Of a stretch of 64,000 nt of DNA, positions 10,894-63,613 are shown one piece after another. Positions within the stretch are counted from its first letter, which is position 1, and each line of letters begins with the position of its first letter. The notes under the pieces were generated by a model that worked only from the letters and a program-made list of their open reading frames with translations, searched no databases and was not told the origin of the DNA. The position numbers and the translations under genes were made by a program. The DNA is from Alphaproteobacteria bacterium (lineage in GTDB: Bacteria; Pseudomonadota; Alphaproteobacteria; Rickettsiales; 21-14-0-20-44-7). The stretch spans positions 15,623-79,622 of the forward strand of contig JAYVPI010000016.1 in the NCBI GenBank assembly GCA_043757405.1, in the 5' to 3' direction.

Positions 10894-10913
10894 GGTTTTT
10901 CCTCGTTTAAATC

Positions 10914-11002
10914 CGTCATTGCGAGCGAAGCGCGGCAATCCACTGTTCCGGGCTCCAACACTGGATTGCTTCGCCAAATATAGAATTTGTCTCGCAATGA
11001 CG
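10914..11002. repeat. Family A nested-palindrome element
   Basis: CGTCATTGCGAGCGAAGCGCGGCAATCCA ... TGGATTGCTTCGCC ... CTCGCAATGACG. Confidence 0.85.
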
Positions 11003-12128: not shown

Positions 12129-12458
12129 ATGTCTAGATTTCCGATTTATTTCCCTGAGAGGGGACAAAGTATATTTTTAGTTTCTTCATTTCTTTTGCTT
12201 ACGGCGTGCGGCTCGATTGGCGGGCCATTAGTATCGAGTGATTTCCCGCCACCGGGCCCGGCGAATTTTGAGAAAGGTATGCTGGACGGTTGCAAAAGCG
12301 CGGCTAGCGCGATTGGCGGGGGCACAGTTTTGGGCGCAGTTTATGATAAAGTTTATCTGGATGTTGAACAAAGCATCAACGACAAAATTTATGCCCGCGC
12401 TTGGGATGATGGTTTTCATTATTGCAAATACTCACTCGATGCGACGCTGCTGACTTAA
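12129..12458 (+). CDS. Small lipoprotein, GWxDGC family (solitary sixth paralog of the 54880-56653 array)
   Basis: Lipobox LLLTAC, then FPPPGPANFEKGMLDGCKSA ... YARAWDDGFHYC. Closest to the 54880 copy. Confidence 0.7.
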   Translation: MSRFPIYFPERGQSIFLVSSFLLLTACGSIGGPLVSSDFPPPGPANFEKGMLDGCKSAASAIGGGTVLGAVYDKVYLDVEQSINDKIYARAWDDGFHYCKYSLDATLLT

Positions 12459-12531
12459 TTCATGCTTGCCCCGGTTTTTAGACGATGAACCGGGGCGGCG
12501 CAAACAACAAATTTTAATAAGGGTTTTTTTT

Positions 12532-13152
12532 ATGACATTACCAACACAATATATCTCTCCTCGTGCAGAAGAGGGCAAACAAGAAGCAATTGGCTTTTTG
12601 CGCCTTCAGCCTGATTTCGTATATGAACTGATTCAGGCAATTAATGTTGCCGAGGAGGGTTTTAGCCCAATACCTGTACCACGCGAAGTTGCTCACTTTT
12701 TAAGAACCATACTTCATGCGGCGGGAGACGAACATGAGTTTGCATTACAGATAATCGGTTTGAGCTATCTCGATAGTTCTATCGTAGAACGTGATGCAGT
12801 CGCTCCTAAATATGAAAAACTTGGTGATGGTCTTGAATTATTAAGACCGTATGTAGAAGAGAGTTTGGATTCCAGATTTTTAATCAAGCAATACGACTTT
12901 TTTATTCAGGAGGCACAACAATTGGTTGGTTCGGAGAATTTCCAAATATTTTCCGGGGAATCATTTGATGAAATCCGTGCACGCAATTTGAATGCAAAAC
13001 TGGGGGCGCTTGATTATGAACTAGACCTCGCTGCAGGATATTCAAGTTGGTCAACTAGGGGCGGGGATAGACATGGTCTTGGCAACTGGGGAGCTAGGCA
13101 CAGGTATGAGCTCGCAGAAAGGAGCCTTGCTGGAAGAGGGGCTTTTGGCTGA
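12532..13152 (+). CDS. Hypothetical protein (206 aa)
   Basis: Long ORF, start trimmed to MTLPTQY. No family recognised. Confidence 0.5.
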   Translation: MTLPTQYISPRAEEGKQEAIGFLRLQPDFVYELIQAINVAEEGFSPIPVPREVAHFLRTILHAAGDEHEFALQIIGLSYLDSSIVERDAVAPKYEKLGDGLELLRPYVEESLDSRFLIKQYDFFIQEAQQLVGSENFQIFSGESFDEIRARNLNAKLGALDYELDLAAGYSSWSTRGGDRHGLGNWGARHRYELAERSLAGRGAFG

Positions 13153-20529: not shown

Positions 20530-22119
20530 TTAAGAGCTAGTAGTTTTTTCCAGGACTATGTCAACGCGGTCAGGGACGCCGCTGCCGGCTTTGTTACCCA
20601 ATGGTTTGATGTCCATGCGATCGGCGTTGATATTGTGGTCAAGGAGGTAGCTGCGAACGGCCAGGGCGCGGGCGAGCGCTGTGCGTTTGGCTTGGCTTGC
20701 CTGGTCTGGGGTGCCGCTGGCATAGGCGATAACCGCGATATGCATGTTTTTATCGGCAGCGAGTTGAGAGATTATGCCATCGAGTTTTGGTTTTTCAGTG
20801 AGTGGCAATTCAACTTCAGCTTCGCCATAAACCATGGAAAGCGCGGCGCCGGAAGTGGCGGCAGGTACTTCGCTGGTTTGCAAAGTGTTTTGTGATTGGA
20901 CAATTACACTTTCTTTGGTTGGCATGCTGGCCGTATCGGTGAGTGGTGTTTTTGCCGGAACAGCGCCGCTGGTGGTTTCTTTTTTATCGAACAAATCAGA
21001 AAGCGGGGGCAGTTCTTTTACTGTCGGTTTTTCTAATGGGTTGTCAGTGCTGCTTGCGGCGATTGGCGGCAGGGCAGGTTTGGAAGCTAGAGTCGCCACT
21101 GGTGCGGCGATTATATCATGCGGCTGAATGATCAGTGGTGTCTTGGCGCTGGCAGTGCTTACTGGCTTTGGTGGAATATCCAATGATTTTTCCGCGATTG
21201 GTGTGGCTGCTTTTGCCGGAGCTGGTTTTTTAGCCTCCGGTTTTGCTTTTGGCGCTGGCGGCGGAGTTGGGGTTTGGGCATCTTCATTTGCTAAATCTAT
21301 GTCTTGGACAAGAGTGCCGATATTATCGGCGGTTTTAGTAGGTTTTTTTGCTTCTGGAGCTGATTTTTCTTCAATCAGTTTTGGTAAGGCCTGGGATGAT
21401 TGTGGCGCGGGAGGTGGCGATAATTCAGGCATAGAAGTCGCGCTGGCGGCGCTGGCTGGCAAAGTTACGATTTTATCGGCCTTGCGCAAGGCGATTATAT
21501 CTTTTGCCGGTAAATTCGGAGTGGTTTTTGTTGCTTCCGGTATTATGGCCGGGGCTGGCATATCGCTGAGTGCCGGTTGTTTATTATCGGCGGCGGCTAC
21601 AATTATAGGAGTTGGAGCCGGTTTGTTTTTGATATCCGATGCGGCCATTTCAGGTAAATTTATGGATGGCTTCGCTGGAGCTGCAGCTATCGCTGGTTGC
21701 GATTGCGGTAATGATGGCGCAGGTTTGTTCTTGGCTATCGGTTTAAATGCTTCTGTTAGCGGTGGTAAAGTTGGCGTTGGCGCGGTTTCAACTTCGGCGG
21801 TTTCTTCCTGAGCTGGTTTTGGAGTTGGTTTAATTTTGGCGAGTTGCTTTGTTTTATGCGCTGGTTTTGCAGCTTTCGCTGGTTGTGGATCAATCACTGG
21901 TTGTGCAGTGACCATGTTTGTTCCGGGGGCGCCGATATAACCGCTAACTGGGCGGCCATTATATGTCGGAGCGGCTGGTTCCAAATTGCCCAGGGCGCCT
22001 AGATTGACGCTGATTGACGGTTCGGAATTGTGAAGTTTATAGAAGCTTTCGCGGGCTTGGGCGCCTGATGTCAGGCCAATTGAAAGGATTGTTGCGCTTA
22101 AGAGGTTAATAATTTTCAT
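20530..22119 (-). CDS. OmpA-family peptidoglycan-binding protein with long Pro/Ala/Lys-rich linker
   Basis: Signal peptide, about 350 aa of PAPK-type low complexity, and a C-terminal OmpA_C-like domain (TALARALAVRSYLLDHNINADRMDIKPLG). Confidence 0.75.
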   Translation of the reverse strand: MKIINLLSATILSIGLTSGAQARESFYKLHNSEPSISVNLGALGNLEPAAPTYNGRPVSGYIGAPGTNMVTAQPVIDPQPAKAAKPAHKTKQLAKIKPTPKPAQEETAEVETAPTPTLPPLTEAFKPIAKNKPAPSLPQSQPAIAAAPAKPSINLPEMAASDIKNKPAPTPIIVAAADNKQPALSDMPAPAIIPEATKTTPNLPAKDIIALRKADKIVTLPASAASATSMPELSPPPAPQSSQALPKLIEEKSAPEAKKPTKTADNIGTLVQDIDLANEDAQTPTPPPAPKAKPEAKKPAPAKAATPIAEKSLDIPPKPVSTASAKTPLIIQPHDIIAAPVATLASKPALPPIAASSTDNPLEKPTVKELPPLSDLFDKKETTSGAVPAKTPLTDTASMPTKESVIVQSQNTLQTSEVPAATSGAALSMVYGEAEVELPLTEKPKLDGIISQLAADKNMHIAVIAYASGTPDQASQAKRTALARALAVRSYLLDHNINADRMDIKPLGNKAGSGVPDRVDIVLEKTTSS

Positions 22120-41622: not shown

Positions 41623-42921
41623 TTACTTAACCTGCACCAGCTCGGCTTCGCGGGTGAGCATGTAGAGTTTGCCGTTGGCGATGGCTGGGGCGCTGTAAAT
41701 TTCTTTGGGAATTTTTAGGTTTTGCATGTTGCGGCCATCTGCTGGATCATATTGCAAAAGTTTGCCCTGGGCGCTGATGAGAAGCAATTTGCCGCCAGCC
41801 ATGACTGGGCCGGAATAGAAATTGTGTTTCCCCTTCTTCTTGGATTGCGGAAGGCCGCTGACCCATTTTACACGACCGTCGAAACGGTTGAGGGCCATTA
41901 GCTGATTACCTTGGGAAATGGCGAAGATATATTTTCCGGCCACCCATGGTGTTGAGGTGACGCTGCCGATTTTCTGGCGCCAAATTATAGTGCCGTTGGT
42001 GGCGTTGAAGGCGGTGAGATCGCCACTATTGCTACTGATATATACTAACCCATCGGCAATTACCGGCGAGGCGCTGACATCATTCAAGGCAGAGGAGGCG
42101 TTTTGCAGATCGGTACTGGTGGAAACTAATTCGGTCCATAATTCGTTGCCGCGCGGGGCGTTGATACCGAAAACTTCGCCGGATGAATAGGCGGCGATTA
42201 CGATGTCGCCTTTGACGGCAAGGCTTGTACTGCCATAAAAGCTGGTGGTTTCGCGGACGCCGGAATGACGCCACAATGTTGCGCCATCAATGACCGAGAG
42301 GGCGAAAAGCTGGTTGTCGATTGTGGCGGCGAATACTTTATCATTGGCGACGATTGGGGCGCGGCGTAACGGGGCTCCGAGGTTCTTTTTCCAGATTAAT
42401 GCACCATCGGTTTCGGAAACGGCGACAACTTCGCCATAGCCGGTGGCGGCGTACAGCACGCCATATGCAGAAGTGATTCCGCCGCCAGGAAGGTCACGGT
42501 CTTTTTTGGAAGCGGTGGATTTTTTTTGCCATTTTTGTTTCAAAGTTTCGGCGTCATAGGCGGAAATATTGCTGTGGCCGTCGATGACGAAAACTGTGTT
42601 GCCGTCAACGGATGGGGCGAAGGCCAGGAAGAATTCATTCTCCGGTTCATCACCGGCGCTGACTGATTGTACCGCGTTCAAATCTCCCGAAAGAGTGACG
42701 TTGCCGGTATTCGCGTTGGTTGGCGTGGCAGTTGTGGCTTGTGGGATATCGACAGTTTCGGCCTGCATTCCCGGTTCTGCAGCAATTTTCGGTGCATCTT
42801 CCATCACGGCATAGCGATCGCCGGGTAGTTTTGGTTTTTCACCGGAGCCGAGCCAGCTGGGGAGGCTGCTGCATGAGCTGAGCAACAGCAATGCGCAGAT
42901 TAAAAAATTATTCTTCTTCAT
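41623..42921 (-). CDS. bamB: Outer-membrane protein assembly factor BamB
   Basis: Lipobox LLLSSC, PQQ-like beta-propeller repeats, conserved position between the yfgM-like gene and der. Confidence 0.85.
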   Translation of the reverse strand: MKKNNFLICALLLLSSCSSLPSWLGSGEKPKLPGDRYAVMEDAPKIAAEPGMQAETVDIPQATTATPTNANTGNVTLSGDLNAVQSVSAGDEPENEFFLAFAPSVDGNTVFVIDGHSNISAYDAETLKQKWQKKSTASKKDRDLPGGGITSAYGVLYAATGYGEVVAVSETDGALIWKKNLGAPLRRAPIVANDKVFAATIDNQLFALSVIDGATLWRHSGVRETTSFYGSTSLAVKGDIVIAAYSSGEVFGINAPRGNELWTELVSTSTDLQNASSALNDVSASPVIADGLVYISSNSGDLTAFNATNGTIIWRQKIGSVTSTPWVAGKYIFAISQGNQLMALNRFDGRVKWVSGLPQSKKKGKHNFYSGPVMAGGKLLLISAQGKLLQYDPADGRNMQNLKIPKEIYSAPAIANGKLYMLTREAELVQVK

Positions 42922-53411: not shown

Positions 53412-54755
53412 GTGACAGCTATTTCGGGTCTTGAATTCCACAATAAATTTTCCGGGCTTGGTGAAGCGTTTTTGACGCGGCTGGAGCCGACAGGCTTTTC
53501 CAATCCATTTTTAGTTAATTTTAACCCTGACGCTGCAAAACTGGTTGGGTTGGATAAGTTTGAAATCGAGTATTTCTGCGGTAATAAACTGATTCCGGGC
53601 GGGGATTATTTGGCGAGCGTTTATTCCGGCCACCAATTTGGCCATTATGTGCCGCAACTAGGCGATGGACGCGCCATTATGATCGGGGAAGTCAATGGCT
53701 GGGAAATGCAGCTTAAAGGCTCTGGGAAGACTCCTTATTCGCGTTTTGGCGATGGCCGGGCGGTGTTGCGGTCATCGATCCGTGAATATCTGTGCTCGGA
53801 GGCGATGCATAATTTGGGTATCCCGACTACGCGGGCTTTGTGCATTATCGGTTCGGATGAAGATGTGCAGCGTGAAACGGTGGAAAAGGCGGCAATGTTG
53901 ACGCGGCTTTCACCCAGCCATATACGCTTTGGGCATTTTGAGTATTTTTATTATACCGGCCAGCATCCGCAATTGCGGGAATTGGCGGATTTCACGATAA
54001 ATAATTATTATTCCGGCTGCGATTATGAGGGGTTTTTTGAGCAAGTGGTTTTGCGAACTGCGGCGCTGATCGCCAAATGGCAGGCGGCGGGATTTGCACA
54101 CGGGGTGATGAATACGGATAATATGTCGATATTGGGCCTGACGATTGATTATGGGCCGTTTGGGTTTATGGAGGCGTATGAGCCGGGGTATATTTGTAAC
54201 CACTCTGACCATAGTGGGCGCTATGCGTTTGATCAGCAGCCTTATATCGGCCTGTGGAATTTGCATGCATTGGCTCAGGCTTTATCGCCGTTAGTTAAGA
54301 TGGATAGGGCGGGGGAGATTTTGCAGAAATACCAGCCGGAATTTATCCGAGAATATGAGAGGCTTATGTTTGATAAGCTGGGAGTGGAGAATGGTGACAA
54401 ACAACTGATTGCTGAGTTGCTTGGATTATTGGAAAAGAATCGTCTCGATTATACAAATTTCTTCCGCCAATTGGCTTTGGGCGGAGATGGAGGGAAGGGT
54501 TTTGAGGATTGGTATGGTAAGTATAATAAACTGCAACCTAACCGGAAATTGATGCTTGAGAACAATCCGAAATATATATTGCGGAATTATATGGCGGAAA
54601 ATGCGATTAAAGAGGCGAATAATGGCAATTATGGTGAAATAACCAGGCTATTGGAGTTGTTGAGGCGGCCATATGACGAACAGCCGGAAAATGAGGATTA
54701 TGCCCAAAACTCGCCGGAATGGTCTAAGGATTTAGAGGTAAGCTGTTCATCCTAA
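53412..54755 (+). CDS. selO: Protein adenylyltransferase SelO (YdiU/UPF0061)
   Basis: YSGHQFGHYVPQLGDGRA, GDGRAVLRSSIREYL, HGVMNTDNMSILGLTIDYGPFGF and the C-terminal LEVSCSS. GTG start 8 nt after the tadC stop. Confidence 0.9.
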   Translation: MTAISGLEFHNKFSGLGEAFLTRLEPTGFSNPFLVNFNPDAAKLVGLDKFEIEYFCGNKLIPGGDYLASVYSGHQFGHYVPQLGDGRAIMIGEVNGWEMQLKGSGKTPYSRFGDGRAVLRSSIREYLCSEAMHNLGIPTTRALCIIGSDEDVQRETVEKAAMLTRLSPSHIRFGHFEYFYYTGQHPQLRELADFTINNYYSGCDYEGFFEQVVLRTAALIAKWQAAGFAHGVMNTDNMSILGLTIDYGPFGFMEAYEPGYICNHSDHSGRYAFDQQPYIGLWNLHALAQALSPLVKMDRAGEILQKYQPEFIREYERLMFDKLGVENGDKQLIAELLGLLEKNRLDYTNFFRQLALGGDGGKGFEDWYGKYNKLQPNRKLMLENNPKYILRNYMAENAIKEANNGNYGEITRLLELLRRPYDEQPENEDYAQNSPEWSKDLEVSCSS

Positions 54756-54764
54756 AGCTTTAAA

Positions 54765-54830
54765 CGTCATTCTGCGACTAGATTGCAGGATCTATTCGAG
54801 GAGATCCTATGGTCAAGCCATAGGATGACG
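54765..54830. repeat. Family A nested-palindrome element
   Basis: CGTCATTCTGCGACTAGATTGCAGGATC ... GATCCTATGGTCAAGCCATAGGATGACG. Confidence 0.8.
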
Positions 54831-54879
54831 TATATGATGAAGGTCACAAATTTGAAATAATAATGCGGTATAATAAGGC

Positions 54880-55191
54880 ATGAATAAATGCAGGCGATAT
54901 CTGGGCTTAACGGGGTTGTTGGCTATTTCCGGTTGTACTGCGCCTAATGCTATGCTTCCCGGCCCATTATTCTCCAGTAACTTCCCGCCGCCAGGGCCGC
55001 CGAATTATCAGCAGGGTATGCTGGACGGCTGCCGGACTGCGATTGGTGCATCGGCGAGCGGCTTTTATGCCCTGCTTTATAACAAAGTTTATTACGACGT
55101 CGATAAGGCGATTAACGATACGGTTTACTATAAAGCTTGGAAAGACTCTTATTTTTATTGCAAATATGAACATGATAAAGGCCCAGAATAG
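54880..55191 (+). CDS. Small lipoprotein, GWxDGC family, array member 1
   Basis: Lipobox LAISGC. FPPPGPPNYQQGMLDGCRTA ... YYKAWKDSYFYC. Confidence 0.75.
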   Translation: MNKCRRYLGLTGLLAISGCTAPNAMLPGPLFSSNFPPPGPPNYQQGMLDGCRTAIGASASGFYALLYNKVYYDVDKAINDTVYYKAWKDSYFYCKYEHDKGPE

Positions 55192-55507
55192 TTATATTTT
55201 TCGTGGCTGGTTGGTTTCGCTGGTATTGTTGCTTGCCGGTTGTTTCAATCCGTTGACGGATCCGCATCCGCTTTTGCTGGAAACGGAGGTAAATACCGGG
55301 CCGCCAGAATATCGGCAAGGTTATCATGATGGCTGCCGCTCGGCGATGGCGGCTTATGGTACTTCATATATGAAAACGGTTTATAAGATTAACAAACAGG
55401 CGCAATATGCGACTAGCCGCATGTATAACCAGGCGTGGAAAGATTCCTGGAATTATTGCTACATGTCGATATTCATGATTCGCCAGGATGATGACTCACT
55501 ATTATGA
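55166..55507 (+). CDS. Small lipoprotein, GWxDGC family, array member 2
   Basis: Lipobox LLLAGC. TGPPEYRQGYHDGCRSA ... YNQAWKDSWNYC. The start (55166 or 55172) overlaps the end of member 1. Confidence 0.7.
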   Translation: MNMIKAQNSYIFRGWLVSLVLLLAGCFNPLTDPHPLLLETEVNTGPPEYRQGYHDGCRSAMAAYGTSYMKTVYKINKQAQYATSRMYNQAWKDSWNYCYMSIFMIRQDDDSLL

Positions 55508-56037
55508 TGAAATTTAAAAGTTTGATTTTCGTTATCTTACTAACCGCCTGTAATCTTGGCGGCGCTGAAATTCGACCTCTGAACCCTCCGTTTATGCCGC
55601 CCCCTCCTGAGGGCGGGCCGCAGGAATTCCAGCAGGGCTGGCGCGATGGTTGCGATACTGGTATGGCGCAACATGGTACGGATATTTATCGTTCGGCATA
55701 TGGTTTTAAACAGGACCCTACACAGGTAATGAACCCGATTTATTATAAGGCCTGGAAAGACGGGGAGAATTATTGCCGTTCTTATATTTATGAATATACG
55801 ATGCGCAGCACTCAGATTTATTGCTCAGTTGACGGCTTGGTCAATGATTGCGCCGATACGCAAAATATTCCCGGGCCGTTCATGGGCGGTAAAACCGGTG
55901 ATCAAATCGGCGGTGGATTATTTGGCGGCGGTGGCGGTGCAGGCTCAGGCGTAGGGGCGCTGATGGGCGGGGGCGGGGATAGTGCCCCGGGATTTGGCGG
56001 CGGTGTTGATGAAGGGTCTATTTTTGGTAACTGGTGA
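55504..56037 (+). CDS. Small lipoprotein, GWxDGC family, array member 3 (with Gly-rich C-terminal tail)
   Basis: Lipobox ILLTAC. GGPQEFQQGWRDGCDTG ... YYKAWKDGENYC. ATGA overlap with member 2. About 60 aa of GGGG-rich tail. Confidence 0.75.
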   Translation: MMKFKSLIFVILLTACNLGGAEIRPLNPPFMPPPPEGGPQEFQQGWRDGCDTGMAQHGTDIYRSAYGFKQDPTQVMNPIYYKAWKDGENYCRSYIYEYTMRSTQIYCSVDGLVNDCADTQNIPGPFMGGKTGDQIGGGLFGGGGGAGSGVGALMGGGGDSAPGFGGGVDEGSIFGNW

Positions 56038-56327
56038 TGCGTAAATTATTTTTGATACCTGTATTGGCTTTGTCCTCATGCGCTTTCGGGGGCTCATCCC
56101 CACTATTCATGAATGTCGATCAACCAGGGCCGCCGGAATATAAGGCGGGGTGGAAAGATGGCTGCCAGAGCGGATTGGCGACTTATGGTTCAGTGTTTTA
56201 TAAGGCGCAATATAGTTTTTACCAAAATTACTCAATGATGAATAACCCGGCTTATGTCGCGGCGTGGCACGAATCATTCGATTATTGCCGCCATTATAAC
56301 CTCAAATGGTTCACCCAGGATAATTGA
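56037..56327 (+). CDS. Small lipoprotein, GWxDGC family, array member 4
   Basis: Lipobox LALSSC. PGPPEYKAGWKDGCQSG ... YVAAWHESFDYC. TGATG overlap with member 3. Confidence 0.75.
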   Translation: MRKLFLIPVLALSSCAFGGSSPLFMNVDQPGPPEYKAGWKDGCQSGLATYGSVFYKAQYSFYQNYSMMNNPAYVAAWHESFDYCRHYNLKWFTQDN

Positions 56328-56653
56328 TGAGAATATTATTATTTTTGCCGTTATTTGTTTTGGCTTCATGCTCTATGGATGCGGATTCATTCTTTGCACC
56401 ACGTCCAATTTTCGCTAAAATCAATGGTGATCAGCTGACAAAAGATTTTCCGCCGGATAGTAAACAGGGCTGGAAAGATGGCTGTGAGAGCGGTTATGCG
56501 GTTTATGGTACGAATGTGTATAAGTCTTTTTATGGTTTCAAACGTGATACGACCAAAGTTGGCAATTACGGTTATGAAACTGAGTGGTACAACGGCTATA
56601 ACTGGTGCCGCCAAAATGCCAATACTACGGTCAACCAAAATATATTTTGGTAA
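56327..56653 (+). CDS. Small lipoprotein, GWxDGC family, array member 5
   Basis: Lipobox FVLASC. FPPDSKQGWKDGCESG ... YETEWYNGYNWC. TGATG overlap with member 4. Confidence 0.75.
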   Translation: MRILLFLPLFVLASCSMDADSFFAPRPIFAKINGDQLTKDFPPDSKQGWKDGCESGYAVYGTNVYKSFYGFKRDTTKVGNYGYETEWYNGYNWCRQNANTTVNQNIFW

Positions 56654-56746: not shown

Positions 56747-56848
56747 CGTCATTGCGAGTCCCAGCCTTCGCTGGGATAAACTCCGCGCGGCAATCCAGGG
56801 TCGCAGTCTGTGACCCTGGATTGCCGCGCCTAAAGGCTCGCAATGACG
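56747..56848. repeat. Family A nested-palindrome element
   Basis: CGTCATTGCGAGTCCCAGCCTTCGCTGGG ... GGCAATCCAGGGTC..GACCCTGGATTGCC ... CTCGCAATGACG. Confidence 0.85.
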
Positions 56849-56993: not shown

Positions 56994-58361
56994 ATGAAAG
57001 CAGCGCTGAAAAAAATACTGTTTGCGATTTTGATCATAATTATAGTGATTTTGTTGTTCTATGACAAATTACCGATAAATATCACAGCAGAAAACCAGAT
57101 AGTAAAAGCCTTAAAATCATATGGGCTTAAAGTAAATTCATTGCATGTTGAAAAACTGGGGAATTCAGGAGTTGTTTTAAAAAACATCAATATTGGCGAA
57201 ACTAACCTGCTTGAAATAGGCGAAGCAAAAGTTCAATACGGCATCCGGAAGATTATAAACAAACAGGCGAAGGATATCTCCGCCCGCGATATAAATTTAA
57301 ATATTTATGAGAAAGACGGCCGATTATTAATCGGCGGTTTTGAGCCCCTGATGGAAAAATCAACGCCCGCCACCAATGGCGATAATATTTTTTATGACGG
57401 CGTAAGCCTTAAAAAATTCCTCTCCGGCAAAATTGATATTTCCAACCTGCATATTTCCGTAATAACCGGCGCAATGAATTTATCTGCAATAACTAATTTG
57501 TCCCTGGATATGGAGCCACAGCCAATATTGGAAGCATCAGGCAAGGACTTGCAGCTACATAATAAGCCCTACCAAGTGTCCATCGGCAGTTATATTTTAA
57601 ATGCGAAACTGGATGAAAAAAATAAACAGTGGAAAGGTAAAACCATTTTGGAAAATATCCTAATAACCGGAACTCCCAGCCCTATTCCGCCACTAAAAAT
57701 TACCAGTGATTTCATTTCCTCGGCGAAAGATTTTAATGCGAATATTGATATCGGCGATGCAAAAAAAACCACCGCCGCGCATTTGCATGTGAATAATGTG
57801 AATTTGAAAATTGATTATGCCAAAGTCCCTTGGGGCGGCGGCGTTATTTCAACTAATAATGTTACACTTCCTATAAGCGGAAATAAACCTGTAGCCTTTG
57901 ATATTAAGATAGATAGAGTAGATCTTTCATTGCTTCTTGGTACTCTGAGCGAAGGTAAAATCACTGGTAAAGGCAGTTTAAGTGGCAATTTGCCCATTAT
58001 TTATTACCCGGATGGTACAATTATAATTAATGATGGCGGGGCCGCCGCGATTCAAAACGGGGTTATTAATGTATCCGCCAGCCTCCTGCCTGGCGATAGC
58101 AAACAATTACAGCTGACGCGGGAATTGTTGCAAAACTTTCACTATACTAAGCTCAAAATTACGGTATCATCCAGAGAGGTTGATAAGAAAATTAAAACGG
58201 CTATTAGTCTTGTGCTTGAAGGGAACAACCCCGATGCTCTTGAAGGAAAGAAGGTGAATTTCAGCATTGGTATCACCGGAGATGTTTTGCCCCTGTTGCA
58301 GCAAAGCATTTTACCATTTAATGACATTAAGCAACTGATGAAGTTTAAGGACAAAAAATGA
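56994..58361 (+). CDS. ydbH: YdbH-like (AsmA-superfamily) envelope protein, short form
   Basis: N-terminal TM, a beta-rich repetitive body, and ynbE and ydbL homologues immediately downstream as in the enterobacterial ydbH-ynbE-ydbL operon. Confidence 0.6.
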   Translation: MKAALKKILFAILIIIIVILLFYDKLPINITAENQIVKALKSYGLKVNSLHVEKLGNSGVVLKNINIGETNLLEIGEAKVQYGIRKIINKQAKDISARDINLNIYEKDGRLLIGGFEPLMEKSTPATNGDNIFYDGVSLKKFLSGKIDISNLHISVITGAMNLSAITNLSLDMEPQPILEASGKDLQLHNKPYQVSIGSYILNAKLDEKNKQWKGKTILENILITGTPSPIPPLKITSDFISSAKDFNANIDIGDAKKTTAAHLHVNNVNLKIDYAKVPWGGGVISTNNVTLPISGNKPVAFDIKIDRVDLSLLLGTLSEGKITGKGSLSGNLPIIYYPDGTIIINDGGAAAIQNGVINVSASLLPGDSKQLQLTRELLQNFHYTKLKITVSSREVDKKIKTAISLVLEGNNPDALEGKKVNFSIGITGDVLPLLQQSILPFNDIKQLMKFKDKK

Positions 58362-58549
58362 AAAACGGATTTTTAATAATCGCTCTCAGTTTTGCAGCCG
58401 CACTTGCCGCATGCACGCCAACGGTACAGGTGCAGGCACCTGATAAGCCGATTGAGATAAACCTCAATGTTAATATTGAACATCATATCAAGGTGGAAAT
58501 CGAAAAAGACGTAAAAACCGCCATGGCAAAAAACCCAAATATTTTCTAA
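58358..58549 (+). CDS. ynbE: YnbE-family lipoprotein
   Basis: 63 aa. Lipobox ALAAC followed by TPTVQVQAPDKPIEINLNVNIEHHIKVEIEKDV, the YnbE-family pattern as I recall it. ATGA overlap with ydbH. Confidence 0.75.
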   Translation: MKNGFLIIALSFAAALAACTPTVQVQAPDKPIEINLNVNIEHHIKVEIEKDVKTAMAKNPNIF

Positions 58550-58858: not shown

Positions 58859-59068
58859 AACAAAACCTGCTCCATTCAATTACTACGAACCGTTTGAATA
58901 AGTCTGCGTACTATAAGTTTCTCATTATATGTGGCGCATATCGCATAAATTTATCATAAAATATAGCTTATATTGCAAATATTTAATGCTTGTATCATGG
59001 CATGATAATATCTGAGAGTGTATAAATTATCCGAGGGTTTGAGACTTTTAATCAACATTGGAGTTTAT

Positions 59069-59575
59069 ATGAAATCTACTTTTTTATCTGCCTTGGCAGT
59101 TGCGACTATACTTTCAACTGGCGCTGCTCAAGCATTAGATGTTAGCACTAATACCGGTGTTAAAACCGGCGTCTCTACAGACCAGAATAGCGGTGTATCA
59201 TTGGGAACCAGTACTCGTGTCAATGGCGGCATTAGAACTGGATCTAACACATCTTCTACAGATGTTAATACTGGTGTGAGCAGCGATACCAGCTCAACTT
59301 CCGGCAGTTCAATGGGTGGTAACGCTTCAACATCTACTGGTGTCAAAACCGGCGTCTCAACTAACCAAGATAGCGGTGTATCCCTTCGCAGCGGCACTCG
59401 TGTAAATGGCGGAATCAGAACCGGTTCTAACACTTCCACTACCGGTGTCAGCACAGATGTTGATTCTAGAACTTCTGCTGCAGTGGCTACTGACCATAAA
59501 CATAACAATGACAGCCATGGTAAAAAGAAAGGTCATCACAGACAATCACACTACAAAAACAGCAATGTTCAGTAA
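59069..59575 (+). CDS. Secreted Ser/Thr/Gly-rich repeat protein with basic His-rich tail
   Basis: GGAG Shine-Dalgarno and signal peptide MKSTFLSALAVATILSTGAAQA. Two ~61-aa diverged repeats (TGVKTGVST.Q.SGVSL...TRVNGGIRTGSNTS). Tail DHKHNNDSHGKKKGHHRQSHYK. Confidence 0.65.
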   Translation: MKSTFLSALAVATILSTGAAQALDVSTNTGVKTGVSTDQNSGVSLGTSTRVNGGIRTGSNTSSTDVNTGVSSDTSSTSGSSMGGNASTSTGVKTGVSTNQDSGVSLRSGTRVNGGIRTGSNTSTTGVSTDVDSRTSAAVATDHKHNNDSHGKKKGHHRQSHYKNSNVQ

Positions 59576-62116: not shown

Positions 62117-62162
62117 TGATAATTGAATTATCATTTGCTAATTGATAAGCTCATTATCAATT
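62117..62162. promoter_or_regulatory. Two Fur-box-like palindromes in the divergent promoter region
   Basis: TGATAAT-tga-ATTATCA (62117-62133) and AATTGATAA-gctca-TTATCAATT (62140-62162), between the Fur-family gene and the 62174 gene. Confidence 0.45.
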
Positions 62163-62173
62163 GCATTATAAAC

Positions 62174-63613
62174 ATGAAACCCTCTCTAAATCAAGAATTG
62201 TGGCAAAATGAGGAAGAAAGTGGCTCTTCGCGCCAACAATGGCGGGTTTTGGAAGAGGGAATTCAGAAAGATGAAAAGCTTAGCCAAATCAATAATCAGA
62301 TAGGTGATGAGCTTCTAATAAGTAATTCCGCTAAGATATTAGAGTTTTCTACAAACAATATTCACGCAGCTAACTTGCTTGACCCATTGCCACAAGGTTT
62401 AAGTGTGGGAGATATTGAAGGTAATAATGAGCTTTCAGTTGCCACTATCCTGTCGCTTGTTGAAAGAGGCACTGACGAAGAAGAATTGGAACAAATGCTG
62501 GAGCAAGCGATTACCAGTATTCAGCGAAAAATAGTAAAGGATAAAGCGGCGGCCAAGAAACACTTATCTCAACTGCTTACGTTGATGGCAGTGTTAGAGC
62601 GGACGTTGCGGCAAAGTCATAAGCAGCCGGAGTTACAGAACGCATTGCGTCATATGCAGCAAAAAGTTAGCAATCTTGCCAAAGACGGTAACATTGAGAA
62701 TGTCCAGCAATTCCTTAAAAGCGCAGAATTAAAGAAAGCTTTAAAATCAAGTATTGATACTGCCCTAAAGCAGCCGGAAAACTTTCGTAACATGGCCGAT
62801 AATGTCAGTACGAGAATTAGGGAAACACAAAAAAATGCGACTTTGCAAAACCAAAATCAAATTAAACAACCAATAGAACAAAAGCCGAATCCTCTTAGCC
62901 AACTTATGAATAGAATGTTGGATAAAGGACGTGAGCCGAATCCTCTTAGCCAACTTATGAATAGAATGTTGGATAAAGGACGTGAGATGCTTACTACCGC
63001 TAAGCAACCAAATATCGCTGACCATGCGAAACTTCAGGTTCAGCAGCCAGCGGCCCAAACAAATATTGTTCAAAGACAAACTGCTCAAGTACAGCAGCAA
63101 ACTCATGTTACTCAAACTGCGGCGACCACCATCCAGAACACACGCTCGTCAATAGTGGCCAATACTAATATTCAAATTAACCAAAGCCAAAATCTAATGT
63201 CGAATGTTAGGCCGACATTAGAGACGAAACCGCGTGAAAATGTAGTTACAACCCCACAAAATACTGTTTCGATCAAGAGTCAGCAAATTCAGCAAACGCA
63301 GACTCAAGGGGTAAAGCCCGAAGTTAAATCTCCTACAGCGCAAGATAAACCGCCAACTTCAGGCCATGTTCATTCGGGCAATTGCTGTGGGGTGAATAAG
63401 CAGAATGTAATAGCTGCAAATGAAGCGGCACAAAAATTTACCCAGAATATTGATAGTGTAAAACAGGCAGTTCAATCAAAAGTCGAAACTTCGCAACTTC
63501 AGAAACTTGACCAGTCGCTAAGAAATAGCGCGCAGGATCAAAAACGGGCGCAGGATAGTTATAACAATCTTTCCGGCGGCACTAAAAATGTCTTGGGCAG
63601 TTTGGGCATTTAA
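62174..63613 (+). CDS. Gln/Asn-rich hypothetical protein (479 aa) with a perfect 17-aa tandem duplication
   Basis: Long ORF, ATG at 62174. No signal peptide. EPNPLSQLMNRMLDKGR occurs twice. Confidence 0.55.
   Translation: MKPSLNQELWQNEEESGSSRQQWRVLEEGIQKDEKLSQINNQIGDELLISNSAKILEFSTNNIHAANLLDPLPQGLSVGDIEGNNELSVATILSLVERGTDEEELEQMLEQAITSIQRKIVKDKAAAKKHLSQLLTLMAVLERTLRQSHKQPELQNALRHMQQKVSNLAKDGNIENVQQFLKSAELKKALKSSIDTALKQPENFRNMADNVSTRIRETQKNATLQNQNQIKQPIEQKPNPLSQLMNRMLDKGREPNPLSQLMNRMLDKGREMLTTAKQPNIADHAKLQVQQPAAQTNIVQRQTAQVQQQTHVTQTAATTIQNTRSSIVANTNIQINQSQNLMSNVRPTLETKPRENVVTTPQNTVSIKSQQIQQTQTQGVKPEVKSPTAQDKPPTSGHVHSGNCCGVNKQNVIAANEAAQKFTQNIDSVKQAVQSKVETSQLQKLDQSLRNSAQDQKRAQDSYNNLSGGTKNVLGSLGI
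62884..62985 (+). repeat. Perfect 51-bp tandem duplication inside the 62174 gene
   Basis: The unit GCCGAATCCTCTTAGCCAACTTATGAATAGAATGTTGGATAAAGGACGTGA occurs twice with no mismatch. Confidence 0.95.

Follow-up and report, generated by a model that had tools for sequence, protein, structure and literature searches.

Five paralogous lipoprotein genes arranged in tandem at positions 54880–56653 of a 64,000-nucleotide stretch of contig JAYVPI010000016.1 (Alphaproteobacteria bacterium, GenBank assembly GCA_043757405.1; the whole stretch is hereafter referred to as the window) encode members of a domain family that is absent from every curated library searched; neither the family nor its arrangement as five genes has so far been part of the curated record. 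Among uncultured Rickettsiales-like Alphaproteobacteria the cassette is maintained as a self-contained unit with orthologues specific to each position, and its five classes are ancient, non-redundant and always all retained. Judging from these sequence features, there is about an even chance that the five non-redundant paralogous lipoproteins form a hetero-oligomeric complex of the cell envelope.

Organization of the array

The five array genes and a solitary sixth copy in the same window are the following, with E values, where given, referring to a profile hidden Markov model (HMM) of the family.

54880–55191, + strand: gene 1 (class 1), 103 amino acids, lipobox LAISGC, motif GMLDGC...YYKAWKDSYFYC, E = 2e-36
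55166–55507, + strand: gene 2 (class 2), 113 amino acids from MNMIKAQ, lipobox LLLAGC
55504–56037, + strand: gene 3 (class 3), 177 amino acids, lipobox ILLTAC, core domain followed by a second Cys pair (YCSVDGLVNDC) and a Gly/aromatic-rich tail
56034–56327, + strand: gene 4 (class 4), 97 amino acids from GTG or 96 from the ATG at 56037, lipobox LALSSC
56324–56653, + strand: gene 5 (class 5), 109 amino acids from TTG or 108 from the ATG at 56327, lipobox FVLASC, C-terminus NIFW
12129–12458, + strand: solo sixth paralogue, 109 amino acids, lipobox LLLTAC, class-1-like offshoot, E = 4e-28

A first-pass annotation, made from the nucleotide sequence alone, had described five consecutive + strand genes plus the copy at 12129, and all of them were found when the open reading frames (ORFs) were checked, with the quoted lipoboxes and both motif blocks present letter for letter in the translations. 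Scanned in all six frames with the family HMM, the 64 kb gave exactly these six ORFs, with E values from 4e-28 to 3e-55. For gene 2, the mechanical ORF list uses an upstream ATG at 54947; the start was placed at 55166 because the orthologues and the signal peptide point there.

The junctions between the genes were also as originally read, namely a 26-nucleotide overlap followed by ATGA, TGATG and TGATG, with the overlap of genes 3 and 4 reading GTGATG and that of genes 4 and 5 reading TTGATG. The 26-nucleotide overlap of genes 1 and 2 (55166–55191) recurs in a related locus (L006, 5874–5899); one of its reading frames specifies the conserved class-1 C-terminus (KYEHDKGPE), the other the class-2 N-terminus (MNMIKA). 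Upstream of gene 1, 9 nucleotides before its ATG, there is a perfect TATAAT. The region 54880–56653 is a single operon of five tightly packed genes; this packing supports the earlier proposal of one coupled operon, and the conservation of the five genes as a unit fits its suggestion of stoichiometric products.

In an alignment of the six window proteins, the lipobox Cys, two Pro, a Gly, the Asp-Gly-Cys triplet, two Tyr, a Trp and a final Cys are invariant. The mutual scores of the paralogues, 57–92 bits, speak against a chance resemblance, although identity within the window's own array is just 32–35%. The solo copy is nearest to member 1, as had been noticed (45% identity, reciprocal best hit).

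Since the ORFs score with the E values given above and the Nei–Gojobori dN/dS ratios against their L006 orthologues are 0.07–0.22 (genes 1, 2, 3 and 5; for gene 4, as for the flanking SelO gene, dS is saturated and the ratio cannot be computed), the five array ORFs are genuine genes under purifying selection. Their amino-acid identity to the L006 proteins is 64–83%, and that of SelO, at 72%, falls inside this range. Gene 1 has one-to-one orthologues in L006, L014 and L009, with 61–82% identity.

A domain family outside the curated libraries

Each protein is built in the same order, with a signal peptide, a lipobox Cys, a short Pro-rich arm and a domain of ~65 residues, and the signature G-x-x-x-G-C ... 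Y-x-x-x-W-x(6)-C is found in all six. The putative lipoboxes of all six agree with the pattern [LVI][ASTVI][GAS]C. A profile search of a library of 1.84 billion sequences, with one representative per 50%-identity cluster, yielded 466 cluster representatives at E ≤ 1e-3, of which 171 also passed E ≤ 1e-10; almost all have 90–230 amino acids, and the only names that their sources offer are 'hypothetical protein' and 'uncharacterized protein'. By a crude regular expression, 229 of the 297 full-length family members (~77%) carry a lipobox; Asp at position +2 is rare among these (4/229) and is found in none of the five array proteins. The C-terminal residue is Trp, Phe or Tyr in 31% of the full-length members, being Trp in 38 of the 297.

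The family-wide alignment supports the claim that these proteins are paralogous lipoproteins of one family, marked by a conserved signature of two Cys among aromatic residues, and the conservation of the Cys and aromatic positions, which the first-pass annotation had left to be looked at in relatives, holds across 299 members. In gene 4 numbering, Gly43 and Cys44 are 100% conserved among these members, Cys85, Tyr74 and Trp78 are each 99% conserved, and Gly39 and Asp42 are conserved in 97% and 89%, respectively. The position of Gly47 is occupied by Gly or Ala in 99% of the members, and those of Ala77 and Ser81 by small residues.

The motif had not been placed in any named family, and searches of Pfam-A, NCBIfam, PADLOC and the PDB, together with Foldseek comparisons, were all negative. 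For the six window proteins, Pfam-A 2025 and NCBIfam r20 gave nothing at E ≤ 1 beyond noise, and seven divergent members, including a single-copy Paraburkholderia protein, a ten-repeat protein and natural fusions, were likewise negative against the curated families. When 97 aligned members were scanned against Pfam, a generic lipoprotein attachment-site model was matched in two and the rest were scattered chance matches. Peptidase_M26_C (E = 0.04), BTRD1 (E = 0.067), T4_Spackle (E = 0.073) and Yae1_N (E = 0.33) were discarded as such, all being far below the cut-offs and present in at most two of the 97 members. The PDB sequences contained no match to the family profile (hmmsearch, best E = 1), and a full-text literature search for the motif strings found no paper. 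Since no match to the PADLOC defence models was obtained at E ≤ 0.1 and no family relative was found on the IMG/VR viral contigs, the array is considered to be neither mobile nor defence-related.

Predicted fold

The first-pass annotation had proposed structure prediction of single members, and a three-helix domain was confidently predicted. The AlphaFold2 model of the gene 4 product, computed with 97 homologues, has a mean predicted local distance difference test score (pLDDT) of 84 and a predicted template-modelling score of 0.75, with three predicted helices at residues 34–51, 54–59 and 72–94; Cys44 sits on helix 1 and Cys85 on helix 3. The model of the gene 3 product has the same core, with pLDDT above 90 for residues 30–100, and a tail that is predicted to be disordered, most of the chain beyond about residue 111 having a pLDDT below 50. 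The two additional Cys and the Gly-rich tail previously attributed to member 3 were confirmed; the Gly/aromatic-rich tail comprises ~60 amino acids, includes a literal GLFG and ends in Trp. The second Cys pair is shared by the class-3 orthologues, in which G-[DN]-W is also conserved at the C-terminus. Foldseek comparisons of the models with the PDB gave best E values of 8 (gene 4) and 2.3 (gene 3), with TM-scores of at most 0.25, and the best E value against BFVD was 1.8.

Two ridges of small residues spaced i/i+4/i+8 are observed, Gly39-Gly43-Gly47 on helix 1 and Ala77-Ser81-Cys85 on helix 3, with one Cys on each; the corresponding patterns are G-x3-G-x3-G and [AG]-x3-[AGS]-x3-C. Such ridges would represent the pattern of tight antiparallel helix packing. 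The disulfide proposed earlier is thus compatible with the modelled placement of the two Cys residues on helices 1 and 3 and with the small-residue ridges, and may well link the two helices.

Conservation of the five-gene cassette

Loci encoding relatives (numbered L001 onwards) were collected by looking up the sites that encode homologues and by searching a set of genomes, one for each GTDB species, with patterns from class-4 orthologues. When the family HMM was applied to their six-frame ORFs, exactly five same-strand tandem members were found in each of 16 independent complete loci, the window included. Complete five-member arrays are those of the window, L006, L007/L014, L009, L003/L016, L010, L012, L015, L017–L024 and L026; L025, in which four members are seen, is cut by the contig end. 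As in the window, the genes of the other arrays are separated by at most 25 nucleotides or overlap. The carriers are metagenome-assembled genomes (MAGs) labelled Rickettsiales, Rickettsiaceae or Alphaproteobacteria, as well as unlabelled contigs from metagenome and read assemblies; the closest named relative of the array in the genome scan is that of Alphaproteobacteria bacterium CG11_big_fil_rev_8_21_14_0_20_44_7.

The array members cluster by position instead of by genome. When the arrays of the window, L006, L014 and L009 were compared, reciprocal best hits lay at the same position in all 20 cases, with 42–82% identity. Proteins at the same position share 150 bits on average, against 56 bits at different positions, and best hits fall at the same position in five of five cases within an array type and in 49% over all array pairs, compared with 20% expected by chance. 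In a neighbour-joining tree the clades are specific to position, with classes 1 and 2 cutting across array types. The tail-bearing subunit occupies position 3 in the array type of the window and position 5 in the commonest type.

These observations bear on an alternative explanation, in which the five proteins would be independent periplasmic binders or inhibitors, each with its own target (host or competitor lysozymes, muramidases or type VI secretion effectors), co-expressed from the operon as a protective set. Small disulfide-containing lipoproteins are common among periplasmic inhibitors and immunity proteins, and the occurrence of single-copy members in unrelated bacteria would suit such an activity, as would the T4 Spackle lysozyme inhibitor match, weak as it is (one of 97 members, E = 0.073, within chance). 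On the other hand, arrays of immunity proteins or inhibitors are usually variable in copy number and fast-evolving, whereas here there are five fixed classes with one-to-one orthology, dN/dS ratios of 0.07–0.22 and identities to L006 (64–83%) that bracket that of SelO (72%). Neither fold nor sequence matched MliC, PliC or Spackle, the PADLOC models were negative and no effector genes are linked to the array, so that this explanation is considered unlikely.

Solo copies, fusions and repeats

The solo copy has an orthologue of its own, P0025, with 70% identity; P0025 and the L006 array proteins are alike recorded on a 61.6-kb contig. The domain is also found in other arrangements. P0099 is a natural fusion of a class 4 domain followed by a class 5 domain, in which the former signal peptide of the second domain has no lipobox Cys, and P0121 and P0104 are likewise two-domain proteins. 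P0167 (787 amino acids) contains about ten tandem short versions of the motif (~45 amino acids each; Y-x-x-G-Y-x-D-G-C ... Y-R-R-G-W-x-x-G-x-x-x-C) behind a His-rich N-terminus, and the domain therefore also occurs in repeat form. The sequence of the domain itself suggests that a Y-x-x-G-[WY]-x-[DE]-G helix was duplicated internally.

Single-copy members occur beyond the Rickettsiales-like group, in Paraburkholderia rhizosphaerae (L029, 7671–8168), in a Vitreimonas sp. MAG (L028) and in Nitrosophilus alvini (L030, 5001–5288). They include proteins of cultured bacteria and are annotated as hypothetical in every case, and their neighbourhoods, like that of a further single-copy homologue (L031), gave no functional clue.

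Genomic neighbourhood

The first-pass annotation had correctly identified the genes flanking the array: upstream lie genes for RcpC/CpaB, a secretin, CpaD, a CpaE-like protein, CpaF, TadB/TadC (two T2SSF proteins) and SelO, and downstream those for YdbH-like and YnbE-like proteins. The role that it had read into this position, between a tad–selO and a ydbH–ynbE operon, was not borne out. In a tblastn search of the window flank proteins against all fetched loci, matches were found only in L001, L002, L006 and L009. L001 is 100% identical to the window in all compared proteins, and the adjacency to tad and SelO is seen just in the close relatives L001, L006 and L009. The co-occurrence of tad or ydbH genes with the array, which it had proposed to look for, is not conserved, and in L009 the downstream gene encodes a DinB-like polymerase (Pfam IMS) and not YdbH. 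Elsewhere, the genes adjacent to the array encode Rrf2 and a gamma-glutamyltransferase (L003), a phosphoesterase and ArgJ (L010), or glycosyltransferases and an RseP-like protease (L012). All-against-all clustering of the flanking ORFs of 21 loci revealed no family besides the array that is common to more than three of them; because no neighbour family is conserved, the cassette is autonomous and its tad/ydbH context carries no family-wide signal. A functional link to tad/SelO or ydbH was rejected from these two analyses, and we infer that the array serves neither the Tad pilus nor YdbH as an accessory.

The same analyses speak to the possibility that the five lipoproteins are a pilotin- or dock-like accessory of a secretin or Tad pilus, aiding the assembly or anchoring of the secretin in the outer membrane. 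Pilotins are small outer-membrane lipoproteins, and in the window, L006 and L009 the array does lie, co-oriented, behind cpaE/cpaF-tadB-tadC and selO, with rcpC and the cpaC secretin gene also present in the window; in L007/L014 a different secretin gene, itself preceded by a prepilin peptidase gene, lies ~2.6 kb upstream of the array. Over the family as a whole, linkage to tad or secretin genes is confined to the window, L001, L006 and L009, plus the different secretin of L007/L014, and no tad or secretin homologue lies within ~8 kb of any other array locus. Since the three tad-linked loci are close relatives, shared ancestry explains their synteny. Known pilotins, moreover, are single genes and not sets of five paralogues. 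An accessory function of this kind is therefore very unlikely.

As for the location of the proteins, the part of the earlier proposal that places them in the envelope still stands as likely because of the lipoboxes, and not because of the neighbouring genes, from which it had been argued.

In three lineages selO lies directly 3' of tadB/tadC on the same strand (window, 53412–54755; L006, 4143–5534; L009, 4216–5616), as if it were a member of the tad operon. The YdbH-like protein of the window (56994–58361) has 455 amino acids and covers only positions 689–876 of the 893-position Pfam model, and the gene for the YnbE-like lipoprotein comes next, at 58358–58549.

A putative hetero-oligomeric envelope complex

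Five ancient paralogues, fixed in number and order, would be the signature of a hetero-oligomeric machine. In the mechanism that we propose, the five products would be exported, lipidated and oxidatively folded, with one inter-helix disulfide per domain, and would then join in near-equimolar amounts as a hetero-oligomer. The complex would be held by its lipid anchors on the periplasmic face of a membrane, more likely the outer membrane because none of the five array proteins has Asp at position +2. In most arrays, one subunit or more (class 3 in the window) would supply a disordered Gly/aromatic-rich tail, often with an aromatic residue at its end, and this tail would probably reach out to peptidoglycan, another envelope protein, the membrane or some other partner. 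The most likely role of such a complex is a housekeeping one, structural or organising, in the envelope.

Several points weigh against this proposal. Positional orthology is just partial across the most divergent array types, and the gene order is rearranged in L016, so that the order is not universal. Since single-copy members are found in other phyla, the domain can work without four partners. The assignment to the outer membrane leans on the +2 rule of Escherichia coli, which may not hold in these bacteria. The one pointer to a physical hetero-oligomer, namely the natural class 4–class 5 fusion P0099, is indirect, and the approximately 17 arrays are too few for an analysis of co-evolution. 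Complementarity of charge between the classes was also considered and dismissed, as no consistent pattern was found.

A more specific version of the hetero-oligomer is put forward tentatively and is judged somewhat improbable: it would be an obligate hetero-pentamer with one subunit of each class, built from a disulfide-stapled three-helix domain of a kind not seen before and bearing one FG-like disordered tail. It would make up a new core machine of the envelope, found specifically in environmental Rickettsiales-like Alphaproteobacteria.

Comparison with known systems

The array was compared with several established groups of proteins and, since no defining feature of any of them was present, it was filed under no known family. 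Tandem lipoproteins of Staphylococcus aureus (Lpl/Csa, DUF576, nuSa-alpha island) are encoded by paralogues arranged head to tail in one orientation. They are much larger and belong to a Gram-positive bacterium, in which they are encoded on a genomic island with a strain-variable copy number and no fixed classes. They are also unrelated in sequence to the present family, DUF576 being matched by none of the 97 members scanned. As clusters of tandem paralogous lipoproteins they are nearest in kind to the array, and the literature search on paralogous or hetero-oligomeric lipoprotein arrays returned only papers on S. aureus lpl (for instance bioRxiv 10.1101/353227 and PMC6048232), Borrelia and Mycoplasma.

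This resemblance raises the question of whether the array could encode a surface-exposed family of antigens or host-interaction proteins, grown by tandem duplication in the manner of S. aureus Lpl or of the paralogous lipoproteins of Borrelia. Both the tandem arrangement of paralogous lipoproteins and the labelling of the carriers as Rickettsiales, many of which are host-associated, would be in keeping with it. A copy number fixed at five, ancient classes and strong purifying selection are, however, the opposite of lineage-specific expansion, and Pfam found neither DUF576 nor any other surface-antigen domain. Since purH, guaA, leuA and fabF are encoded, the genome of the window does not resemble that of a reduced endosymbiont, which also counts against an antigen family; this origin is most unlikely.

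The Helicobacter Hcp/Sel1-like repeat proteins are similar in being exported and composed of helical units, each with a disulfide stapling two helices together, and the present family is also found as the ten-repeat protein P0167. They differ in that Sel1 (PF08238) was not matched at E ≤ 1 in the window proteins or P0167, nor at E ≤ 0.1 in any member, and no Foldseek match was obtained; the array proteins carry the GxxxGC...YxxxWx6C signature in a single domain with a predicted lipid anchor.

Glycine-zipper lipoproteins (SlyB/Pcp and the Rickettsia 17-kDa antigen, PF05433/PF13488) are small, contain Gly-rich segments and oligomerise in the envelope. The Gly-rich tail of class 3 and the GxxxGxxxG pattern on helix 1 recall them, whereas the gene 3 protein matches none of the Pfam families at E ≤ 1, the glycine-zipper models PF05433, PF13488 and PF13441 included, and the Gly-rich part of class 3 is a poorly conserved C-terminal tail of low pLDDT instead of a two-helix membrane hairpin.

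BamB–E, LptE and the secretin pilotins, which are outer-membrane lipoproteins and stoichiometric parts of complexes, provide the working analogy for the mechanism proposed above. These proteins are mutually unrelated and each has a curated family, in contrast to the five array proteins, which are paralogues and belong to no curated family; bamB is encoded separately in the window (41626–42921). MliC/PliC and T4 Spackle are also small, exported and disulfide-containing, and some are lipoproteins. They show no significant match in sequence or structure to the array proteins, and their genes are not found in a conserved five-class operon.

Palindromic elements and other features of the window

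Two copies of a nested palindromic repeat were located, one of them just beyond the array.

56747–56848: nested palindromic repeat, 94 nucleotides past the gene 5 stop, RNA fold −77.5 kcal/mol, z = −9.4
10913–11002: second copy of the nested palindromic repeat, RNA fold −42.6 kcal/mol, z = −5.0

Both copies have the termini CGTCATTGCGAG...CTCGCAATGACG and the inner sequences GCGGCAATCCA...TGGATTGCC in common, and the repeat resembles a miniature inverted-repeat transposable element or a repetitive extragenic palindromic element. The copy at 56747–56848 may be a terminator or an insulator of the operon. A different palindrome (ACGTCAT...ATGACGT) is located at 54764–54831, in the 124-nucleotide gap between selO and gene 1, with an RNA fold z of −3.7.

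Two ORFs, 12466–13152 (228 amino acids) and 59018–59575 (185 amino acids), have no Pfam match, the former lying directly downstream of the solo lipoprotein copy. Two longer ORFs, 20533–22119 (529 amino acids) and 62123–63613 (496 amino acids), have no NCBIfam match at E ≤ 1e-10.

Outside the window, one MAG (CAZOKN01) contains two separate five-gene arrays of different types, in regions of 4.9 kb (L018) and 8.0 kb (L024); either the whole cassette has been duplicated or the bin is chimeric.

Implications

At the least, a new family entry is justified and the idea that the array belongs to a Tad or YdbH system is corrected. Should the proposed explanation be true, the array would expose an uncatalogued domain family, with 466 representatives in a library clustered at 50% identity, all of them unnamed or hypothetical. 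It would also reveal a lipoprotein module of five subunits, conserved in a little-known branch of uncultured Alphaproteobacteria, the envelope biology of which is essentially unexplored and for which the fixed set of five paralogues provides a concrete and testable entry point.

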